In this document: positions 4,342 through 35,969 of the stretch, in pieces | Layout of the letters: every line of letters starts with the position of its first letter | How positions within the stretch are numbered: position 1 is the stretch's first letter | Origin: Thermoproteota archaeon | GTDB taxonomy: Archaea; Thermoproteota; Thermoprotei; Gearchaeales; Gearchaeaceae | Assembly: GCA_032249235.1 (NCBI GenBank) | Contig: JAVVGF010000001.1 | Location: 416,001-480,000, forward strand | Direction: 5' to 3' | DNA: 64,000 bases | The notes under the pieces: generated by a model | Told to the model about the DNA's origin: nothing | Seen by the model: the letters and a program-made list of their open reading frames with translations, nothing else | Database searches by the model: none | Translations under genes and position numbers: made by a program

Positions 4342-6521
4342 GCAGTTACATAATTAAAAAATTCTATAGACGTAAAGGATTTTTATTATTTTTATTTTTA
4401 ATTCTTGTAGTTAATATTCTATTTTACTCTATTAATAATGCTACTTCAAATTTAGAAGATTTCGCTAAAAATAGTTGGATAAATTATGTAGGCGATATAA
4501 GAATATCAGGAAATTTAAATGAAGAATTTTTGAACGAATTATCATCTCAGAGTTATATTTCATCTGCTACAGGACTTGCTTTGGTATATTCAACCATTAA
4601 ATTCAATAATCAAAGTTATTCTGCACTATTTGTATATTGTTCAAATCCTAAGGGTTTGATGGGCTATGAAATTTTAGAAGGCAATAACAATTCTCTACTC
4701 TATTTGAAGGGTGGCAAAATCAATCTTAAAATAAACGATGAAATATTCATCACTACTTTTAATCATACCGTAAAAGTTTCAGGTATTGCATCTGCATTTT
4801 ATAACTTCGGTTTAGTTGATCTTGAGTTTGTTGTGAATAAAGATTTCATGCATAAATTGGGAAAGAATGATTATACGTATATATTTGCAAAGCTAAAAGG
4901 AGAGATCAGTGATTTAGAAAATAAGTTAAAATCAATAGCAAACGAAACCAATTCCAAGATCGATTCAATAATAGCATTAGATCCTAATGCCTTTCCTGGA
5001 AAAGAAGATATTGAAGCCGCAAAGAATGTCTTCAACATTTTCGTAATCATACTCTTGTTAGTAATATTCGTAGCACTTTCTGCCTATCAATTCATTTATT
5101 TAGAAACAAATGATAAAGAAATAGATTATTTGAGAGCTATCGGTCTTACGAATAGACAAATAATATTCGTTCATGCATTACCATTAATATTAATATTTGC
5201 AGTCGGTTCTATAGCTGGAACTTTGATAGCATTTCCTCTTTCTAAGATTCTCTTTGATAGTGCATTGAGATCAACACCTATAACTTTTTCAGAAATATTA
5301 CTCAACAGATTTGTGTTCCATGCTAAAATTGAAGCACTTCTTTATTCCTATTCTGTTTTACTCATGATCTTTTTACTCACTTTAATTCCCGTAACTATCT
5401 ACATTTCAAGAAAAAAAGAATCGATAGTTAAAGGAGGTTCGAAATTTTTAAGAAGAACAAGTTTGATTCCTAAACTTGTTTTATTTTCAAGTTCAACAAG
5501 ATTGTGGAGAATATTGCTTATCATATTACTATTTGCTTTATTAATTGCTTCAAATGCAGCTGTAGCTTCTATAATCAATAATTGGGATTCTTCAGTAAAA
5601 GAACTCAACAACTTTTATGATTATTTTATATATGCAATCGGATATTCTGAACTACCAAAAATAAACAACGCAACCATATTGGTTGCAACTTTTCATTTAG
5701 CAAAAGTTTATGATAAAAGTGTGGTAACTGCTTCATTTATACAACTAAGCAATGTTAGTCCAAAACTTTTAGAAGGAAGATGGCCAAGCAAAGCAGGCGA
5801 GGCGACTGTTAGTATTACATTAGCAAAAGATCTTAACTTAAAGTTAGGAGATGAAGTTCTTTATTCAATTGGTTTGAAGAATTATACATTTAAAGTAGTA
5901 GGCATCGCATTTATTCCTTTATTTTATTTATATACAAGAGAAACAGAATCTATAATTCTAAATTATGATGATTATGCAAAAATATTTGGAAGAAGTGAAG
6001 CTTTTGCTATTTACTTGAAAGGAAATGTTGAACAGGTTTTAAATGAACTCAAATCTAAAGGTTTCTCTACGTATTACAGAACAAAAGATGAATCGATTAA
6101 GATAGCTAGCGAAGGAGGAAGGATTGCGCTTATTTTTCTCAATTTTCTAACAATTACTTTGACTTTATCAAGTGCATTGCTTATATCTATCATTATCTTT
6201 TCTGAACTTTATTCTAGAAGTAAAGAATACGCTGTCTTCATACTTATTGGTTATAGAATTAAGGATATTTTGTTTTTAATAGCATTTTCTCTACTTATTT
6301 TAGCAATAATATCTTTACCTATATCATATTTTATGTTAATTTTTTTATCTATTTTATTGAAAAATCAAATAATAGCTTTTACAGGTTATTTCGATATTAG
6401 CATTAATTTTATTGACATTTTAATAAATCTTCAATACATAATTTTACCTATTTTAATTGTTTTTATAGCCAACTACAGATATCTAAAGAGATTAAATATC
6501 TATAAAATATTATTGCAATGA
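4338..6521 (+). CDS. ABC transporter permease, FtsX/MacB family (duplicated)
   Basis: Two TM clusters with large extracellular domains; KEIDYLRAIG and KEYAVFILIG motifs; ATGA overlap with the ATPase gene. Confidence 0.85.
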   Translation: MSSYIIKKFYRRKGFLLFLFLILVVNILFYSINNATSNLEDFAKNSWINYVGDIRISGNLNEEFLNELSSQSYISSATGLALVYSTIKFNNQSYSALFVYCSNPKGLMGYEILEGNNNSLLYLKGGKINLKINDEIFITTFNHTVKVSGIASAFYNFGLVDLEFVVNKDFMHKLGKNDYTYIFAKLKGEISDLENKLKSIANETNSKIDSIIALDPNAFPGKEDIEAAKNVFNIFVIILLLVIFVALSAYQFIYLETNDKEIDYLRAIGLTNRQIIFVHALPLILIFAVGSIAGTLIAFPLSKILFDSALRSTPITFSEILLNRFVFHAKIEALLYSYSVLLMIFLLTLIPVTIYISRKKESIVKGGSKFLRRTSLIPKLVLFSSSTRLWRILLIILLFALLIASNAAVASIINNWDSSVKELNNFYDYFIYAIGYSELPKINNATILVATFHLAKVYDKSVVTASFIQLSNVSPKLLEGRWPSKAGEATVSITLAKDLNLKLGDEVLYSIGLKNYTFKVVGIAFIPLFYLYTRETESIILNYDDYAKIFGRSEAFAIYLKGNVEQVLNELKSKGFSTYYRTKDESIKIASEGGRIALIFLNFLTITLTLSSALLISIIIFSELYSRSKEYAVFILIGYRIKDILFLIAFSLLILAIISLPISYFMLIFLSILLKNQIIAFTGYFDISINFIDILINLQYIILPILIVFIANYRYLKRLNIYKILLQ

Positions 6522-28116: not shown

Positions 28117-30477
28117 ATGGAACACGAAAACTTTAAGTTTTATAAGAATTGGCGAACTCTCCTATCAACAACGCATCATACTGAAATAGGAATATTATAT
28201 CTCTGGACAGCTTTCATCAACTTTTTATTAGCAGGAGCTTCGGCATCGATAATGCGTCTCCAATTAGGAGGGTTGAACGGTATTGTGACTCCTGATACTT
28301 ATTACAGTTTAGTTACTTTGCATGGATTAGCAATGCTATTGTTCTTCGTTCCTCCTGCTTTCACTGGATTGGCAAACTATGTTTTACCTAAAATGATAGG
28401 TGCACCAGATTTATATTGGCCAAAAATAAATGCTCTTGCTTATTGGATGTTCGCTTCAGCTTCAGCATTATTATGGTCAAGTTTGCTCATTGGCTATGCA
28501 CCCTTAGGCTGGACACTCTATCCACCTAATTCAATAATAATTCCCGATCCTGGCGTTGATATAGTTATCTTAGCAGTAGTTTTAGTGGGTATAAGTACGG
28601 TAATCAGTGCTATAAACTTCTTGATGACTATAATAAGATTAAGACATCCTAGTGTTAAATTCTCACTTTCAACATTACCTTTATTCGTTTGGGCTTTTTT
28701 GGCAACCATATTATTAATGATAGTTGCACTTCCTCCACTAGCTATCGGAGGAATTATGCTTGTATTGGAAAGGCACTGGGGTGCTCAATTCTTCATGGGT
28801 ACGGGCGACTCTTTATTATGGCCGCATATTTTCTGGTTCTTCGGTCATCCTGAAGTTTACATATTAGTTTTGCCTGCATTTGGTGTTGTTTCTGAAGTAA
28901 TACCAAGAATGGCAAGGAAGCCAATATATGGTAGAAGAGCTATAGCATTATCTTCAATACTCATCGCTTTCATATCTTATTTTGTTTGGGTTCATCATAT
29001 GTTCACTACCCCAACCTCCTTAGCTATTGATATAGCTTTCATGGTAACTACCGTAGCTGTAGCCGTTCCAACAGGTATAAAAGTCTTTAACTGGGTTGCA
29101 ACGCTTTATGGAGGTAGAATAAGAGTTTGTTCACCCATGGTATTCTCATTAGCTTTTGTGGGAATATTCATCATAGGAGGAATAACTGGTGTATGGCTCG
29201 CATGGATTCCTTTTGATTATGCTGTTCATGGAACTTACTTTGTATTAGCACACTTCCACTTCGTTGTATGGCCTATTGTTTTTGCATTCATATCAGGCAT
29301 ATATTATTACTTCCCATACATGACAGGTAAAATGTTCAGTGAAAAATTAAGTAAAGTTAGCTTTGTTTTATTAGTAATTGGAGTCTTAGGGACTTATTTA
29401 CCATGGATTCAATTAGGACTTCTAGGAATGCCAAGAAGATATTATTCTTATCCTTCAGAATATGATTTCTGGCAACAAATATCTACAATCTTTACATTCT
29501 TCATAATAACTGGAATATTAGTTTTCATTGTTGATATACTAAGGAGCATAAGGAATGGTAAGCCTGTTGCAAACAAAGAAGACCCATGGGGAGCTGCGAA
29601 GTTAGGAATTCCCGATTTCGCACCTGTGAAGCATACAATAGCTTTGAATGGTTCAGCTTTTGAATATCACTATCCTCATCCATATCCTGCAATTGTAGGT
29701 TTACTTTCTTCTGTGGCAACAGTAGGAGGATATTTCCTCTTAATAGGTAATTATGCATTTGGTTTCATGGCTATTACTGCATTCTTAATAGCTCTTGTAT
29801 ATTGGTTCGCAAAAGATTATCTTAGCAGCTTCTCAAAGCTAGCAAGATACTTAGCAGAGTTATCATTAGAAAAGCTTGAAAGAGCAAGAAGGAGCGATGC
29901 TTTAGTTGGTACTTTATGGTTTATATTCTCAGAAGCCATGATTTTCGGTACAGCTTTCACTGCATATTTCTTCCTCCGAGCATCCTACGTTGCGAGATTT
30001 GGTCAATGGCCTCCTGTAGGTGTTCATTTGGTTGAAACATTCCCAGTACTGGTAAATTCCATTTTCTTATTCACAAGCGGATTTACGATGCATTTTGCTT
30101 ATCTCAGCTTCTCTAAAGGCAATATTAAGAGATTCAGGATTTTGTTATATTTAACCTTTATACTAGGCTCAATATTCATAGCAGGACAAATAAGAGAATA
30201 TATTACTTCTGGTCTATCGATATCTGATACAATTTATGGAAGTACCTTCTATCTAATAACAGGTTTACACGGTTTCCACGTAATAATAGGTTTAGTATTC
30301 ATGGTAGCGCTAATTGCTATGTTGTTAAAAGGATTTTTGAGCTTAGAAAGGAAGGCAATGGTCGAATCTGCTACAATTTATTGGCACTTTGTAGATATAG
30401 TTTGGGTTTTCGTATTAGCTATAGTTTACTTCAACTTAGCAGGAGTAATAGCAAGTTATTGCGGTATTCACTTCTAG
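28117..30477 (+). CDS. Heme-copper oxidase subunit I/III fusion (A1 type, SoxM-like)
   Basis: FGHPEVY, WVHH, HFH, D-channel Asp (APDL), K-channel Lys (PTGIK); C-terminal subunit III motifs TGLHGFHV and YWHFVD. Confidence 0.95.
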   Translation: MEHENFKFYKNWRTLLSTTHHTEIGILYLWTAFINFLLAGASASIMRLQLGGLNGIVTPDTYYSLVTLHGLAMLLFFVPPAFTGLANYVLPKMIGAPDLYWPKINALAYWMFASASALLWSSLLIGYAPLGWTLYPPNSIIIPDPGVDIVILAVVLVGISTVISAINFLMTIIRLRHPSVKFSLSTLPLFVWAFLATILLMIVALPPLAIGGIMLVLERHWGAQFFMGTGDSLLWPHIFWFFGHPEVYILVLPAFGVVSEVIPRMARKPIYGRRAIALSSILIAFISYFVWVHHMFTTPTSLAIDIAFMVTTVAVAVPTGIKVFNWVATLYGGRIRVCSPMVFSLAFVGIFIIGGITGVWLAWIPFDYAVHGTYFVLAHFHFVVWPIVFAFISGIYYYFPYMTGKMFSEKLSKVSFVLLVIGVLGTYLPWIQLGLLGMPRRYYSYPSEYDFWQQISTIFTFFIITGILVFIVDILRSIRNGKPVANKEDPWGAAKLGIPDFAPVKHTIALNGSAFEYHYPHPYPAIVGLLSSVATVGGYFLLIGNYAFGFMAITAFLIALVYWFAKDYLSSFSKLARYLAELSLEKLERARRSDALVGTLWFIFSEAMIFGTAFTAYFFLRASYVARFGQWPPVGVHLVETFPVLVNSIFLFTSGFTMHFAYLSFSKGNIKRFRILLYLTFILGSIFIAGQIREYITSGLSISDTIYGSTFYLITGLHGFHVIIGLVFMVALIAMLLKGFLSLERKAMVESATIYWHFVDIVWVFVLAIVYFNLAGVIASYCGIHF

Positions 30478-30908
30478 ACATCTAAAATAACTCTAGCAAA
30501 CCAATTTCCATTTTTTTCTTTTAGTTCAAACATATGCATCGTTACAGCTTTAACATCTACAAGCGTATCATGTTTTTTTGGATCCAATTTTTCTCCATAT
30601 GCTTTAACCTTTGCAATTTTTTTATCATTTGTATAAATTTTTATTTCAAATTCAGAAAATAAGATGTTTTCAGTATCTTTATAATAAATTAGTTCTTGAA
30701 GAAAATTAAATAGCAATAATTCTAAATCTTGTGCTATGACTTCAAATTCCCTTACTTCTTTCCTTTCTATAGAATCTAAATTCAATACCATTGCATTTGT
30801 TATTGCTTTTCCCGCATATCTGAATAGATCTTCAATACTTCTTGCATTAACTTCAAAAGCTAAATCTGCAATCGCTATATCTTCCAAAAATTTATAGCCT
30901 TCGTTCAT
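30474..30908 (-). CDS. Archease
   Basis: YKFLEDIAIAD, DVKAVTMH, C-terminal VILDV. Confidence 0.93.
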   Translation of the reverse strand: MNEGYKFLEDIAIADLAFEVNARSIEDLFRYAGKAITNAMVLNLDSIERKEVREFEVIAQDLELLLFNFLQELIYYKDTENILFSEFEIKIYTNDKKIAKVKAYGEKLDPKKHDTLVDVKAVTMHMFELKEKNGNWFARVILDV

Positions 30909-31800
30909 TTATGATGCACTCTTTTAAATTATTCTCAATTTCTTTCTCAAATTCCTTAATTTTCTCTCCTACAAACAGTATTCTGTTTGAACTATAATCA
31001 AATTTTTCATAGCTTATCCTTCCTGCTACGTAATTGAATAAGTAGCTTCCTTCTTGAAATATTACAAAACCTTTACCTCTATATACTCTTTTTGGTAAAC
31101 CTAATAAGAAATTTTCAAATTTTTCTTTATCTAAAATTCCTTTGAATTCAATGTATATGCTATCGTATATTTCATCATGAACTATAAATTCTCTTTTTTT
31201 AACTTCTTTTTCAATGAAATAACCGAAAAACATTGAATAATCAAGATCACCATTACAATATTTAGTTTTAAATAACACCGCTCTATCGTTTATTGATCTA
31301 ACTTTAGATTCAACAATTTTTAAATCATCTTCGCTAACTAAATCTATTTTATTAATCAATATGAAGTCAGCCATTTCTATTTGTATCCTTCCTGTATATC
31401 CTATTTCAGGAAATCTTACCATGCTATCTGCGTCAACAATAGTTATGATGTTATCTAGAATGACTTCTTGGATGTTTTCTAAATTCACTAGGAGAGCATC
31501 TGGTTCTGCAATACCTGTTGTTTCTACGATTATATAATCTGGCTTAACCTTTTCTTTAATCTCTTTTATTGCATATTCGAACTCGCCTGTTAATGAACAA
31601 CAAACACAACCTCCTTGCAACTCAATCATGTTCACAGCTTTTCCTTTTATTACTTCTGCATCTATAGCTATTTCCCCAAATTCATTCATTATTATAGCTA
31701 TTTTTCTGTTTATTCGATCTAAGTTATCTATTATTCTTCTAAGAAAAGTTGTTTTACCTGCACCTAGATATCCAGAAACAATTATGATTGGTATCCTCAT
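30892..31800 (-). CDS. COG0523 (CobW/ZNG1/YjiA family) G3E metallochaperone GTPase
   Basis: SGYLGAGKTT, NEFGE, GCVCC (CxCC), VETTG, NKID, CobW_C-like RVYRGKG. Confidence 0.93.
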   Translation of the reverse strand: MRIPIIIVSGYLGAGKTTFLRRIIDNLDRINRKIAIIMNEFGEIAIDAEVIKGKAVNMIELQGGCVCCSLTGEFEYAIKEIKEKVKPDYIIVETTGIAEPDALLVNLENIQEVILDNIITIVDADSMVRFPEIGYTGRIQIEMADFILINKIDLVSEDDLKIVESKVRSINDRAVLFKTKYCNGDLDYSMFFGYFIEKEVKKREFIVHDEIYDSIYIEFKGILDKEKFENFLLGLPKRVYRGKGFVIFQEGSYLFNYVAGRISYEKFDYSSNRILFVGEKIKEFEKEIENNLKECIINERRL

Positions 31801-31804
31801 GAGC

Positions 31805-33256
31805 TTATCCTTTTATGTTACCTATAGGCACGAGCCTTACAACTTTCTTAGATAATTCAGCTCTTGCTACAGCATCTACCACTTCATCTATGGATTTGTA
31901 TGCACCACCAAATTCTTCTGCTACCCCAGAATAAGATACACTTCTTACTATTATTCCTCTTTTTTCCATATCTTTAATCAATTGTTCTCCTCTAACTAGC
32001 TGTCTTGCTTTTGTTCTACTCATTGTTCTTCCGCTTCCGTGACATGTTGTTCCAAATGTTTCCTGCATTGCTTTATTCGTTCCTAATAAAAGATATGAAC
32101 CTGTCTCCATGCTTCCTCCTATTATTACTGGTTGTCCAATTTCTTTATACATTGCAGGAATGTCTTCACTTCCAGGTCCGAATGCTCTTGTAGCTCCTTT
32201 TCTATGAACTAAAACTTTCATCCTTTTTCCATCAACGATGTGTTCTTCAAGTTTTGCAGTATTGTGTGCTACATCATAAACTTGGTGCAATCCTAGTTTT
32301 TCAGGATCGCTGTTGAATATTTTAGAAAAGACTTCTCTGATTCTATGCAATATTACTTGCCTGTTAGCAAAAGACATGTTTATACCACATTTCATAGCTG
32401 CGAAATAATCTTGTCCTTCTTTAGAGTTGAAAGGTGCGCATGCTAATTCTCTATCTAGTATTTTAATACCATATTTTCTTTCCATTACATTCAAGAATAC
32501 TTGTAAATAGTCTGTAGCAACTTGATGACCGAAACCTCTGCTTCCGCAATGAAACATGATTACAATTTGATTTTCAAATATTCCCAATCTTTTAGCCATT
32601 TCTGGATCGGCGATATTTTCAGGCTTAACCCATTGGATTTCCAAATAATGATTTCCTGAACCAAGTGTTCCGATTTGATCAATGCCTCTATTGATTGCTT
32701 TTTGGCTTATCTTGGATGGATCTGCTCCTTTAATGCAACCATTTTCTTCTGTTCTTTCAAGATCCTCTTCCCAACCATATCCTTGTTCTACGCACCATTT
32801 AGCTCCTGCTTGTAATACTTCAATGAATTGTGAATGAGTTAACTTAAGAAATCCTGTTGCGCCTACGCCTGCTGGAACGCGTTGAAATAGCATATCTACG
32901 AGTTCTCTTAATTTTGGTCTTACTTCGTTGTATGTTAAATTTGTTAATACCATTCTCATTCCGCAGTTTATATCAAAACCAATTCCTCCAGGTGATATTA
33001 CGCCGTTTTCTGCATCCATTGCTGCTACACCTCCTATTGGAAAGCCATATCCTGAGTGTCCATCAGGCATTACATATGAATATTTTAAGATACCTGGTAA
33101 AGTTGAAACGTTCAATGCTTGTGTGAATACCATTTCATCCATTTCTCTTAGTAATTTTTCAGTAGCATATATTCTAACTGGAACACGCATGTCGCTTCTA
33201 TATCCTTTAGGTATTTCCCAAACTACTTCAGAAATTCTCTGAATTTTAGGTAACAT
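31805..33256 (-). CDS. rtcB: RNA-splicing ligase RtcB
   Basis: MPDGHSGYGFPIGG, DINCG, GSGNHYLE, HCGSRG, HN, CHGSGR. Confidence 0.98.
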   Translation of the reverse strand: MLPKIQRISEVVWEIPKGYRSDMRVPVRIYATEKLLREMDEMVFTQALNVSTLPGILKYSYVMPDGHSGYGFPIGGVAAMDAENGVISPGGIGFDINCGMRMVLTNLTYNEVRPKLRELVDMLFQRVPAGVGATGFLKLTHSQFIEVLQAGAKWCVEQGYGWEEDLERTEENGCIKGADPSKISQKAINRGIDQIGTLGSGNHYLEIQWVKPENIADPEMAKRLGIFENQIVIMFHCGSRGFGHQVATDYLQVFLNVMERKYGIKILDRELACAPFNSKEGQDYFAAMKCGINMSFANRQVILHRIREVFSKIFNSDPEKLGLHQVYDVAHNTAKLEEHIVDGKRMKVLVHRKGATRAFGPGSEDIPAMYKEIGQPVIIGGSMETGSYLLLGTNKAMQETFGTTCHGSGRTMSRTKARQLVRGEQLIKDMEKRGIIVRSVSYSGVAEEFGGAYKSIDEVVDAVARAELSKKVVRLVPIGNIKG

Positions 33257-33317
33257 ACTGCAGAATATAATTCCAAAGAATGATATTTAAATCTAAGTTT
33301 ATAACTTAATAGCTTGA

Positions 33318-35951
33318 ATGTTTGGTATGAATAAGGAACGGGTACTATTTATCGCATGTCTTCTAGTTTCAATTATTTCATCTTTTGTAATCTTTTTACA
33401 ACTTTATAACGAGGCAACAGATCCTACATTAATAGGGAATCAAGGTTATGTTAGTGATGAAATTTGGTATGTTAATTCAGCTAGAAATATTTTTAGAGAT
33501 TTTTTTGGCTTAAATCCTACTTATGTAGATAAAGATGGATACGTTTATTATACAATTCTATTTACCAATGATTCTTCAAGATTCGCACAATTCGATAAAA
33601 TACTTAATTTCGTTCAAGAAAGAAAGGGTTCGATAGATCATGTATATCTAGCAATACCTGCAATTTCAATAAAATTACCAGCTAATGAAAAATTTGATCT
33701 TGAGTTAAATGGCGTAACTGCAATTGCAAAGGGATATCCATATCCTGATGTCAATGCGATTATGAGTTATTATAATCTTGAGCACCCTCCATTGGGTAAG
33801 TTCATTATAGGTATTTCCATTCTTCTTGTTGGGGATTATCCTTTAGCATGGCGATTGCCTTCTATAATAACGAGTGCATCATTGCCAATCATTATATTCT
33901 TTATAGTAAGAAGATTTTCTAATAATCTATTTGCTGCTTTATCCTCTTTATTTATTTTATTTGATGCTCTTTTATTTAATGAGGGCTTTTTAGCATTATT
34001 GGATGTTTATTTAGCATTTTTTATTTCGTTATCTTTATTATTTGCATTATATAAAAAATATCTTTTAAGTTCAATATTTATTGGTTTAGCAGCATCAATT
34101 AAAATCAGTGGAGCTTTTTTAGTTTTTGCGATTCTAATATATCTATCTTTTTATACAAATTATGATAGAAAAAGAATAATATTGCTTTCTTACATAATTC
34201 CTTTCTTTACATGGTTTTTAGTAAATGTTCCAATCATTTTAAAATTAGGAATAAAGAACTGGTTTCAAAGTGTTTTAGGTGCTTTAAGTTGGCATACGAC
34301 ATCAAGACCTGTAGGGCCTCCAACATCACTTCCCTGGGAATGGTTATATAACAAAAATCCCTTTTATTTCCATTTCAACCCCACTTATTCTGCTTCTGTA
34401 ACTGTTCCGATCTATATAATGACTTTCATTTTCCTAATATTTACTCCCTATTTAATAGCGAAGAAATCTCATGAGTTTTCATTGCCCTCTTTATGGTTAT
34501 TAGCAATGTTTCTAGGTTATTCAATTCTCCCTATTCTTGGTAACAACACATTATACAGTTTTTATGCATTTGCCTTAATTCCTATGGTATATTCAATATT
34601 TCCCGTGAATCTTCTGGAGATGTTGATTCCAAGTTTTAAACAGAACGCTTTAGATATGATAAAATATTATTCAGGATTTCTTTCAAAAAAATTTTCAAGC
34701 GATTGGTTTTCTCTGCGTTTCTTTTATGCACTAACGATGTTCGTAGGTTTTCTTTTACATTTGCCCTTTTCTGCGAATCCATTTGGATTCTCGCTATATA
34801 GCGATATCGTTTATTCCATTTATCCTAGATCAGGTATAGGAACAAATTATTTAGGTATTCCTTATATTGACTATCTTTATGAGTATCCTGTTCTCGATGG
34901 AATTTTAACATATATAGCTGCAGCTATTGCTTGGTCTTTACATCCAGCTTATGGTCCTTATATAAATCCGCAAGGTCAACTGACTTTCTATATAATTATC
35001 TCAATATTCAACTTTGTTGCAGGATATTTCCTAATAAAAGACATGTATGAGTTATCTAAGAAGACATATGCAGATTTTTCTCGAATATTACTTTTCCCTG
35101 CATTACCTACTTTATTAGTATACGGGATTTACAATTGGGATCTCATAACTATAGCTCTAGCTTTGCGTTCAATCAAATACTTTGTAGATAATAGATTTAT
35201 TCTAAGTTCTATAATGCTTTCATTAGCTATTATAGCCAAATTATATCCATTGTTGTTATTGTTTGTTTTAGCCAGGGAATTTATTGTGAATATTAATAAA
35301 CAATCGTTATTGAAGTTTTTCTCATATATTTCTCTTACTATTACTCTTGTTATATTATATAATTTGCCTTTCATGATAGTAAATTATAAGGTTTGGTACG
35401 ATAGTTTAATAAATTATCATATAAATTGGTATATTGAAGGATCATGGCTTGTTTTATTATATGGGAATCCATTTAATCATAATGCACAGATTTTGTCATT
35501 ATCTTTAGTTACTTTTTTTTATCTTTTAACTATATTTTTTACTCAAATTAAAAATTACGTAAATAGAGAATATAGAATAATTGAGTCATCATATTTAATA
35601 ATGGCTTTATCGATATTTTCAAGCTATATTCATACTCCTCAACAACAACTTTTATTTTTACCCTTATTATTATTACTTAGATCGATATCTTTAATAGTTA
35701 TATACATTATGGACTTTTTAAATGCTCTTGTCATATTGACTTGGTTTAAATATAAAGAAATAGGTTTATTGTTATTTGGCTATTATCCTCCAGACGAATT
35801 AGGTGGTTCTTTGTCATATTATGCTTTTCCAACTATGTGTGCAATAATAAGAGATTTTATAATGCTTGGCATTTCAATTTACATCTTACTAAAAAGTAGC
35901 TCGGGTGGGATTCGAACCCACGTCTTGGGGTCCAGAGCCCCAAAGGATTGA
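33318..35951 (+). CDS. Fused GT-C glycosyltransferases: PMT/GT39-like N-half plus GT87-like C-half
   Basis: YVSDEIWYV and EHPPLGK in the N-half; YSDI, EYPVL, NWD and KLYP in the C-half; about 20 TM helices. Confidence 0.8.
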   Translation: MFGMNKERVLFIACLLVSIISSFVIFLQLYNEATDPTLIGNQGYVSDEIWYVNSARNIFRDFFGLNPTYVDKDGYVYYTILFTNDSSRFAQFDKILNFVQERKGSIDHVYLAIPAISIKLPANEKFDLELNGVTAIAKGYPYPDVNAIMSYYNLEHPPLGKFIIGISILLVGDYPLAWRLPSIITSASLPIIIFFIVRRFSNNLFAALSSLFILFDALLFNEGFLALLDVYLAFFISLSLLFALYKKYLLSSIFIGLAASIKISGAFLVFAILIYLSFYTNYDRKRIILLSYIIPFFTWFLVNVPIILKLGIKNWFQSVLGALSWHTTSRPVGPPTSLPWEWLYNKNPFYFHFNPTYSASVTVPIYIMTFIFLIFTPYLIAKKSHEFSLPSLWLLAMFLGYSILPILGNNTLYSFYAFALIPMVYSIFPVNLLEMLIPSFKQNALDMIKYYSGFLSKKFSSDWFSLRFFYALTMFVGFLLHLPFSANPFGFSLYSDIVYSIYPRSGIGTNYLGIPYIDYLYEYPVLDGILTYIAAAIAWSLHPAYGPYINPQGQLTFYIIISIFNFVAGYFLIKDMYELSKKTYADFSRILLFPALPTLLVYGIYNWDLITIALALRSIKYFVDNRFILSSIMLSLAIIAKLYPLLLLFVLAREFIVNINKQSLLKFFSYISLTITLVILYNLPFMIVNYKVWYDSLINYHINWYIEGSWLVLLYGNPFNHNAQILSLSLVTFFYLLTIFFTQIKNYVNREYRIIESSYLIMALSIFSSYIHTPQQQLLFLPLLLLLRSISLIVIYIMDFLNALVILTWFKYKEIGLLLFGYYPPDELGGSLSYYAFPTMCAIIRDFIMLGISIYILLKSSSGGIRTHVLGSRAPKD

Positions 35952-35969
35952 CCGCTACCCCACCGAGCT
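35897..35969 (-). tRNA. tRNA-Gln (CTG), no intron, CCA not encoded
   Basis: AGCTCGG TG GGGT AGCGGTCA ATCC TT TGGGG CTCTGGA CCCCA AGAC GTGGG TTCGAAT CCCAC CCGAGCT A; the A1:U72 pair is typical of archaeal tRNA-Gln. Confidence 0.96.

Follow-up and report, generated by a model that had tools for sequence, protein, structure and literature searches.

Introduction

Two kinds of described system meet in the one considered here. The first is the two-gene 'tRNA splicing operon', in which the RNA ligase RtcB, acting on 3'-phosphate and 5'-hydroxyl ends, is co-transcribed with archease, the activator of its guanylylation (Desai et al. 2014, PMC3973293). The second is formed by the COG0523 GTPases, for which it has been proposed that a metal is held at the CxCC motif together with GTP and is passed to a client upon hydrolysis (PMC13001444, PMC11672702). 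Both are found in a stretch of 64,000 nucleotides (nt) from a Thermoproteota archaeon (assembly GCA_032249235.1, contig JAVVGF010000001.1, positions 416,001 to 480,000 of the forward strand), which is called the window below. The same ligase and the same activator are encoded there, but in contrast to the operon of Desai et al. the gene of a COG0523 GTPase intervenes, and the order is rtcB–GTPase–archease.

RtcB needs two metal ions and archease adds a third site, and both the identity and the number of the metals are debated (PMC10630183, PMC10944509). The RTCB–archease complex forms only with GTP and Mn2+, and the Mn2+-dependent guanylylation of human RTCB is abolished by equimolar Zn2+ and diminished by Co2+ (PMC10944509). 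With debated metals and with inhibition of this kind, RtcB faces a problem of metal selection that a chaperone could solve. On the side of the chaperones, COG0523 proteins are widespread, yet the bona fide clients of ZigA and MigC still await identification (PMC13001444).

The original prediction, made from the letters of the window, had proposed that RtcB or archease is the client of the GTPase. The comparative analysis described here makes a functional link of the GTPase with RtcB/archease very likely, and synteny, clade structure, a gene fusion and the gene neighbourhoods leave the proposed client pair as the best-supported reading. It is probable, although by no means certain, that the GTPase is a GTP-driven metal-delivery factor for the RtcB–archease active site, possibly via archease. 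This reading is built on the gene order, the motifs, the conservation of the trio, the structure of the clades, the fusion and the presence of the ligase in a single copy.

The locus and its three proteins

The three genes follow one another on the minus strand of the window as rtcB, GTPase and archease. The rtcB gene (31805..33256) encodes a protein of 483 amino acids (aa; Pfam PF01139, E 2.2e-171), the GTPase gene (30892..31800) a protein of 302 aa (PF02492, E 7e-47; PF07683, E 7.1e-10) and the archease gene (30474..30908) a protein of 144 aa (PF01951, E 1e-36). The gap between the rtcB stop and the GTPase start is 4 nt (31801-31804), and the open reading frames (ORFs) of the GTPase and archease overlap by 17 nt (30892-30908); these coordinates agree exactly with the arrangement originally reported on one strand. 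On the far side of rtcB, a gene encoding a PMT_2-type membrane protein runs divergently from 33318 and has a 61-nt intergenic region in common with rtcB, and a convergent gene for a fused cytochrome oxidase I+III ends at 30477. Since the trio is enclosed by a divergent and a convergent neighbour, the three genes make up the entire same-strand unit.

In the GTPase, the cobW G-domain is followed by the CobW_C domain, and both the PF02492 and the PF07683 matches lie above the curated cut-offs. By these domains and its motifs, the protein is assigned to the COG0523 subfamily of the G3E P-loop GTPases. The Walker A (G1) loop GYLGAGKTT (31747..31773, minus strand like the motifs that follow) is invariant in 70 subfamily sequences, as are C65, C67 and C68 of the CxCC motif (CVCC within GGCVCCS, 31597..31608), E93 and G96 of the G3/Walker B motif ETTG (31513..31524), K151 and D153 of the G4 guanine-specificity motif NKID (31342..31353) and R241, K243 and G244 of the RxKG motif in the C-terminal domain (RGKG, residues 241-244, 31069..31080). 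CxCC is the high-affinity metal site of COG0523 proteins (PMC11672702), and RxKG has been proposed to act in cis as a 'self-GAP' arginine finger, being the sole motif kept across the C-terminal domains of the family (PMC13001444, a 2026 preprint). There is no His-rich tail in the protein; its linker has a single His (H208) followed by acidic residues, and one or two His are present at this linker position in many relatives. The intact Walker A, GCVCC, ExxG and NKxD motifs and the lack of a His-rich tail had already been noted in the original prediction, and all of them were found again.

The GTPase is not covered by the described types that were compared with it. It scored 118.7 bits against the CobW equivalog (NCBIfam cut-off 332.1), 105.8 bits against the ZigA equivalog (NCBIfam cut-off 600) and 114.3 bits against PRK11537, the YjiA-type model (cut-off 361). 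By sequence, the closest solved structure is Escherichia coli YjiA (E 4.8e-27). An AlphaFold2 model made from an alignment of 70 sequences (predicted local distance difference test, pLDDT, 84.1; predicted template modelling score, pTM, 0.72) also had YjiA as its best Foldseek match (E 8.9e-18), followed by HypB, UreG and MeaB-type G3E proteins. The whole-chain superposition of the model and YjiA, aligned across both domains, is poor (TM score 0.47, root-mean-square deviation ~20 Å); therefore, the domain arrangement of the model differs from the YjiA crystal form. The differently placed C-terminal domain possibly corresponds to the 'closed' state proposed in PMC13001444. Few positions distinguish the subfamily from other COG0523 proteins (E73, P131 and mostly E99), and judged by its residues the GTPase is a canonical COG0523 protein set apart by its partner. 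In two GTPases of the same genus, the annotation '1 TGA' raised the idea of a selenoprotein or of recoding; it is explained by shorter C-termini (299 aa), not by readthrough, and the idea was dropped.

RtcB of the window retains D95, C98, N202, H203, H236, H331, H406 and K482, and D95, C98, H203, H236, H331 and H406 are invariant in 18 linked RtcBs. The metal ligands and the His nucleophile have been described for Pyrococcus horikoshii RtcB (PMC10630183), and we equate the window residues with them by alignment position. Similarly, D15, K120 and D143 of archease do not vary among 18 linked archeases, and the window protein has the C-terminus ...LDV. In human archease, D51, D178 and the C-terminal carboxylate build metal site C, and roles are also given for K156 and I179 (PMC10944509). 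By alignment position, D15, K120, D143 and the C-terminus of the window archease would correspond to these human positions.

In a number of RtcB genes, some of them linked to the GTPase and some ordinary, there is an interruption near residues 96-98, beside the catalytic Cys (L009, i.e., G005:C28, L031, L045, G051 and G141), and their open frames are ~850-1070 aa long. They look like the intein-containing form modelled by NCBIfam (NF038162, the top match in the NCBIfam scan). One in-frame TAA each is present in the linked RtcB genes of a Verrucomicrobiales metagenome-assembled genome (MAG; L039, G043:C16:26165-27607) and of a DPANN MAG (G597:C20:961-2307), which might reflect recoding, a pseudogene or an error of sequencing.

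Conservation of the gene neighbourhood

The recurrence of the trio was followed in public genomes, with one genome per prokaryotic species, and each of the 41 loci obtained was searched by tblastn with the three proteins of the window. At loci where the GTPase is at least 44% identical to that of the window, rtcB and/or archease adjoins it in 22 of 22 cases: both genes at 13, rtcB only at 4 and archease only at 5, with two of the rtcB-only contigs ending inside the GTPase gene. At the loci with a GTPase of at most 38% identity (Bacillus, Sulfuriferula and relatives, Ruminococcus), neither gene was found (0/19). The archaeal hosts among the 22 are Thermoproteota, Woesearchaeota, Nanoarchaeia, Micrarchaeota, a 'Thaumarchaeota' MAG and MAGs labelled Methanosarcinales, and the bacterial hosts come from four phyla, with Manganitrophus (Nitrospirota), Verrucomicrobiales, Acidobacteriota and Waddlia (Chlamydiota). 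A second, independent scan, made on metagenome contigs with an alignment of sister-branch representatives as the query, gave 80 loci; rtcB and/or archease accompanies the GTPase at 17 of the 19 loci with a GTPase at subfamily level and at none of the 61 other COG0523 loci. It is because of this comparison (22/22 and 17/19 versus 0/19 and 0/61), and not because of this window alone, that the arrangement can be taken as more than chance. The survey of rtcB–COG0523 neighbourhoods suggested with the original prediction has thus shown recurrence in archaeal and bacterial phyla, and the possibility that the arrangement is unique to this genome, which had been named among the grounds for abandoning the idea, can be set aside.

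Closer sampling gave a similar picture. In a DPANN phylum sampled with 151 whole genomes, seven had a match at E ≤1e-40; six loci were examined, one genome having already been counted. At each of the five loci with 41-48% identity, rtcB and archease both lie within 3.5 kb, in some cases on the opposite strand, and a locus at 37% identity has neither. In the family of the window organism, the five other genomes with a strong GTPase match all carry the GTPase gene beside rtcB, and the three genomes without a GTPase match, which are 67-81% complete, also have no RtcB match. Where one partner does not adjoin the GTPase gene, archease is encoded elsewhere in three of three linked genomes checked and RtcB in three of five, the other two being ~1-Mb MAGs.

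The flanking and intervening genes are heterogeneous. From 177 ORFs extracted at 41 linked loci, the 60 nearest to the module were picked by hand, and among these 60 there is no fourth conserved gene that recurs across phyla, and no recurring metal-uptake, cobalamin or nitrile hydratase gene. For the window itself, the statement that no cobalamin, nitrile hydratase or zinc-uptake genes are nearby holds for the three flanking genes scanned by Pfam. A few local associations can be mentioned. A gene for an RluA-type pseudouridine synthase (S4 and PseudoU_synth_2 domains) comes right after the GTPase gene at three related DPANN loci (L036 1349-2086, L041 875-1609, L045 4581-5708), in two of them between GTPase and archease. 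HtrA and trehalose-phosphate synthase recur in a set of closely related soil contigs. The Manganitrophus locus (L032) has two archease genes (1983-2408 and 4932-5366), which enclose the other two: one precedes rtcB and one follows the GTPase gene.

The GTPase clade and the fusion with archease

Phylogenetic trees place the linked GTPases together. In a FastTree analysis of 150 COG0523 proteins, all 19 linked rows fall in one 49-row clade with a support of 99. A quick IQ-TREE analysis (LG+G4) was made on 96 rows, namely 63 rows of the putative subfamily, 7 references and 26 further representatives (one in three of them, less three long-branch rows). It returned a 63-row clade with a support of 95 in the Shimodaira–Hasegawa-like approximate likelihood ratio test (SH-aLRT), made up of all 32 rows that are linked or fused, both of the exceptions on short contigs and 29 representatives without known context. 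All seven references (YjiA, YeiR, one Bacillus, three Sulfuriferula-type and one Ruminococcus protein) are outside it, and two inner branches, around P0158 and P0154, have no member of known context. The question of a clade, raised together with the original prediction, is answered by these trees: the linked GTPases group in a single clade that is separate from YjiA, YeiR and the rest of the COG0523 proteins sampled.

An exhaustive search of 1.84 billion representatives gave 19,320 relatives, 323 of them at E ≤1e-30. The best match, P0143, is 437 aa long, 51% identical to the GTPase and a natural fusion, with cobW at residues 6-176, CobW_C at 211-290 and Archease at 297-437. Two sequences make up its 90% cluster: one comes from an NCBI contig of 482 kb, the other from a Logan contig of 10 kb. 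In the human complex, metal site C is coordinated in part by the C-terminal carboxylate of archease (PMC10944509). In P0143, archease comes last, and therefore this carboxylate stays free.

The fusion surfaced only in this exhaustive search. When the GTPase was searched by word index among proteins of 530-2000 aa, 22 long COG0523 proteins came up, but an archease domain was absent from all of them, and the corresponding search with archease among proteins of 253-2000 aa gave no match. N-terminal extensions without a Pfam match, and without archease, were seen in P0193, P0198, P0213, P0229 and P0245 (~600 aa) and also in P0256 and P0265; in the first five, the extension is ~300 aa long.

A distinct clade of partner RtcBs

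The partner ligase also stands apart. RtcB of the window is 83-92% identical to the RtcBs of its own family, only 51-57% identical to those found in 32 genomes of its order and class that belong to other families, and 63-72% identical to GTPase-linked RtcBs of other phyla, bacteria included. Trees were made with 53 rows (LG+G4) and with 51 rows (LG+C20+F+G4, quick and then careful) and were rooted on a distant bacterial-type RtcB. A length criterion removed seven RtcBs that are partial or interrupted, and the last trees were made without two long-branch rows. All of the trees recover one group, spanning archaea and bacteria, of 26 linked RtcBs and two Acidobacteriota RtcBs, with SH-aLRT 100 (LG+G4), SH-aLRT 94 (quick C20) and ultrafast bootstrap (UFBoot) 95 with SH-aLRT 94 (careful C20); the two unlinked Acidobacteriota rows were added to the group after the first tree had been inspected.

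Gene order goes together with this grouping. In the linked clade, archease is downstream of rtcB; in the class relatives of the window organism, and wherever an archease gene adjoins an ordinary Acidobacteriota rtcB, it is upstream of rtcB, and there is no GTPase gene. In this lineage, the cassette appears to have replaced an ancestral archease–rtcB pair. As the distribution is patchy and crosses taxonomy, and as the RtcB clade matches it, horizontal movement of the cassette as a unit is suggested.

At 29 RtcB columns, the residue conserved in 90% or more of the clade is shared by at most 10% of 22 other RtcBs, an unlinked comparison set that spans two phyla only. Among the clade-specific residues are F94 and M100 around D95/C98, Y204 after H203, and F235 and C237 around H236; further ones are S408 after H406, then G380, E384 and G386, and N480 before K482. 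In the alignment, several of the clade-specific residues flank the presumed metal ligands and nucleophile in sequence.

The host genome

The host assembly has 1.43 Mb in 18 contigs and is 91% complete, and its nearest public relatives are uncultured hot-spring Thermoproteota. It contains one RtcB, one archease and one subfamily GTPase. ARAGORN predicted 45 tRNAs, 7 of them with predicted introns. Because the only RtcB of the genome is in the operon and 7 of the 45 tRNAs have predicted introns, the operon is the provider of the cell's housekeeping tRNA-splicing ligase and not a spare repair system. With the window there is an archaeal example of a cell that has no tRNA ligase system besides the module, and the stakes in this organism are high. 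Four further PF02492 matches in the genome were considered as COG0523 paralogues; they are weak (22-27 bits, ORFs of 310-456 aa) and were not counted, which leaves one true COG0523 gene.

A proposed metal-delivery mechanism and its rivals

The proposed mechanism is modelled on how characterised COG0523 proteins work. The products of rtcB, the GTPase gene and archease would form one module, in which a housekeeping tRNA-splicing/RNA-repair ligase is combined with a dedicated nucleotide-dependent metal-handling factor. The GTP-bound GTPase would hold a transition metal at CxCC, and its divergent C-terminal domain would dock on archease and/or RtcB. GTP hydrolysis, aided by the protein's own RxKG arginine finger, would then drive the metal into the composite active site, where the receiving sites may be RtcB sites A and B (C98, H236, H331; D95, C98, H203) or site C at the archease tip. 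The outcome would be guanylylation of RtcB under conditions in which the correct metal is scarce or outcompeted. Metal binding by this GTPase, its contact with the partners, the direction of transfer and the identity of the metal are attributed to it by analogy.

A more specific version of metal delivery can be put forward tentatively, and it is possible rather than probable. It would be a two-step GTP-powered relay, from CxCC to the acidic archease tip and from there to RtcB sites A/B, and it would set the active-site metal of a distinct, horizontally mobile RtcB clade. The altered second-shell residues of this clade, including the clade-specific Cys beside the His236 ligand, would give it an in vivo metal need other than the Mn2+ only that is deduced from model RtcBs. 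Should such a relay exist, it would be, to our knowledge, the first metallochaperone dedicated to a nucleic-acid-processing enzyme, and the COG0523 family would gain a defined, genomically linked client.

Several observations speak against the metal-delivery reading, and the first of them is rarity. Among 301 sampled genomes of Thermoproteota, the module was found only in that of the window (G000); among 121 sampled genomes of Acidobacteriota, of which 80 have an RtcB-like match, the subfamily GTPase occurs in the index genome only; and in the DPANN phylum the module is present in 7 of 151 genomes. In the Acidobacteriota genomes G145 and G078, a clade-type rtcB is directly followed by archease, and the subfamily GTPase is nowhere in the assembly; therefore, the GTPase is not obligatory for a clade-type RtcB. 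The rarity of the module and these GTPase-less pairs of the same clade make it look accessory, and the GTPase is probably a conditional helper rather than an obligate one. Such a role fits COG0523 proteins, which are often conditional, and it also limits the claim. Two subfamily members (L096 and L103) have neither neighbour, on contigs of only 1.9 and 1.6 kb, and at L036-L038, L040, L178 and L180 the genes are separated by others or are on opposite strands. The chemistry is a further difficulty. A three-Cys site suits Zn, Co, Fe and Ni far better than Mn2+, and this poor fit of CxCC tempers the delivery reading. For the RtcBs studied, Mn2+ is the best metal in vitro (PMC10630183, PMC10944509).

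The main rival, which copes better with a thiolate-rich site and its mismatch with Mn2+, is a metal proofreader or protector, which we regard as less likely than delivery. Here, CxCC would remove inhibitory Zn2+, Co2+ or Cu, or would shield the catalytic Cys from metal-catalysed oxidation, and would keep RtcB competent with Mn2+ as a prokaryotic functional counterpart of PYROXD1. The evidence from synteny, clade and fusion fits this role equally well, and the host is aerobic, given that a cytochrome oxidase gene adjoins the operon. We know of no COG0523 protein that strips metal from a client, and the sequence gives no indication of the direction of metal flow. The loss of human RTCB guanylylation with equimolar Zn2+ and its decrease with Co2+ (PMC10944509) speak for the proofreader, as does the active-site Cys, which is sensitive to oxidation and is protected by PYROXD1 in metazoa (PMC10630183, PMC12263435, PMC10653391). 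Moreover, the characterised CxCC sites of COG0523 proteins bind Zn or Co, not Mn (PMC7895991, PMC11052692). The conserved apparatus of GTP hydrolysis, however, is normally read as driving metal release to a client (PMC13001444), which counts against the proofreader.

A role without metal transfer is improbable. The GTPase might be a GTP- or metal-sensing switch for the engagement of archease, or a recruiter of the ligase to RNA substrates or the ribosome, in the manner of a mycobacterial COG0523 protein that recruits a ribosome hibernation factor. RtcB consumes GTP, and the need of the RTCB–archease complex for GTP and Mn2+ (PMC10944509) would agree with a switch; the fusion suits a regulator of archease as well as a metal donor. 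There is also a weak NCBIfam match to MRF, the GTPase that recruits the hibernation factor (E 0.0017, far below the cut-off), but it is a generic G-domain match. All three CxCC cysteines are invariant in the 70 sequences, which argues that metal binding is under selection and disfavours the switch or recruiter. Finally, the idea that the GTPase serves some other client and was placed here by local genome history agrees with the rarity of the module and with same-clade RtcBs that occur without the GTPase, but it is nearly excluded by the adjacency in distant phyla (22/22 and 17/19 versus 0/80 for other COG0523 genes), by flanking genes that are otherwise unrelated, by the GTPase–archease gene fusion and by the presence of only one true COG0523 gene in the host genome.

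Candidate promoter, neighbouring genes and metatranscriptome coverage

A TATA-like sequence, TTTAAATA, lies at 33284..33291 on the minus strand, ~32 nt 5' of the rtcB ATG. It is a candidate archaeal promoter of the rtcB–GTPase–archease unit, on what we take to be the usual geometry of archaeal promoters.

One hot-spring metatranscriptome run contains 55% of the sampled words. Its contigs partly cover all three genes at a word depth of ~1-10, with up to 49 in one rtcB bin, and the contig of the oxidase gene has a word depth of 30 in the same run. No gene junction is bridged by 31 letters or more in these records, in which contigs cannot show a transcript.

The neighbours have features of their own. 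The oxidase gene (28117-30477, plus strand, 786 aa) encodes a fusion of cytochrome oxidase I and III with COX1 and COX3 domains, and its 3' end overlaps the 3' end of the convergent archease gene by 4 nt. On the other side, a tRNA-Gln(CTG) gene (35896-35969, minus strand) covers the last 56 nt of the opposite-strand PMT_2-type ORF (33318-35951, plus strand, 877 aa). Because of this overlap, the true end of the ORF may be earlier than 35951.

Novelty and comparison with known systems

No paper that joins COG0523, CobW or metallochaperones with RtcB or archease was found in the literature searched, and the original statement that such a link is not described has held up within it; the 2021 COG0523 similarity-network review (Edmonds et al.), which could list an rtcB-linked cluster, was outside that search. 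The word 'GTPase' is absent from the available text of Desai 2014 (PMC3973293) and Desai 2015. Haas 2009 has no 'ligase' in its text, and RtcB, archease, UPF0027, COG1690 and COG1371 are absent from its searchable supplementary files (all but one). The first 300,000 of the 605,994 characters of the 2024 Chem Rev article on metallostasis do not contain 'RNA ligase', 'RNA repair' or 'tRNA splicing'. COG0523 chaperones as such are already known; what would be new is a subfamily among them whose candidate client is of another class.

Members of this subfamily hardly occur outside the neighbourhood of rtcB and archease, and fusion to archease is seen at times. The near-exclusive context and the fusion name a specific client pair, which can therefore be addressed by the existing assays of RtcB guanylylation and ligation. 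If the proposed role is true, a third component would be added to a ligase system that is conserved from archaea to humans, and light would be shed on the way in which the right metal is maintained at a Cys/His site in the cell although zinc competes for it.

Among the systems that can be compared with the module, the nickel relays UreG–UreE and HypB–HypA share with it a G3E GTPase and a small acidic metal-site protein that reaches the active site of the client. Archease, however, is unrelated to UreE and HypA and has its own role in the catalytic cycle. Taken with archease metal site C, the fusion would be compatible with a relay of the UreG/HypB kind. PYROXD1, which acts on metazoan RTCB, is likewise an accessory factor that preserves the metal- and Cys-dependent active site of RtcB, but it is a flavoprotein oxidoreductase with no relation in sequence or fold to G3E GTPases. 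E. coli YjiA (PDB 1nij and 4ixm) is the nearest solved structure, but it is only 23-25% identical to the window GTPase, and it has neither a known client nor linkage to rtcB. The characterised COG0523 systems, i.e., CobW (cobalt, B12), Nha3 (Fe-type nitrile hydratase), ZNG1–METAP1 and ZagA–FolE, share with the window GTPase the two-domain architecture and the Walker A, CxCC, ExxG, NKxD and RxKG motifs, and for CobW and Nha3, as here, the candidate client is encoded next door. In contrast to these COG0523 client pairs, the candidate client of the window GTPase is not a small-molecule enzyme but an RNA ligase together with its activator.

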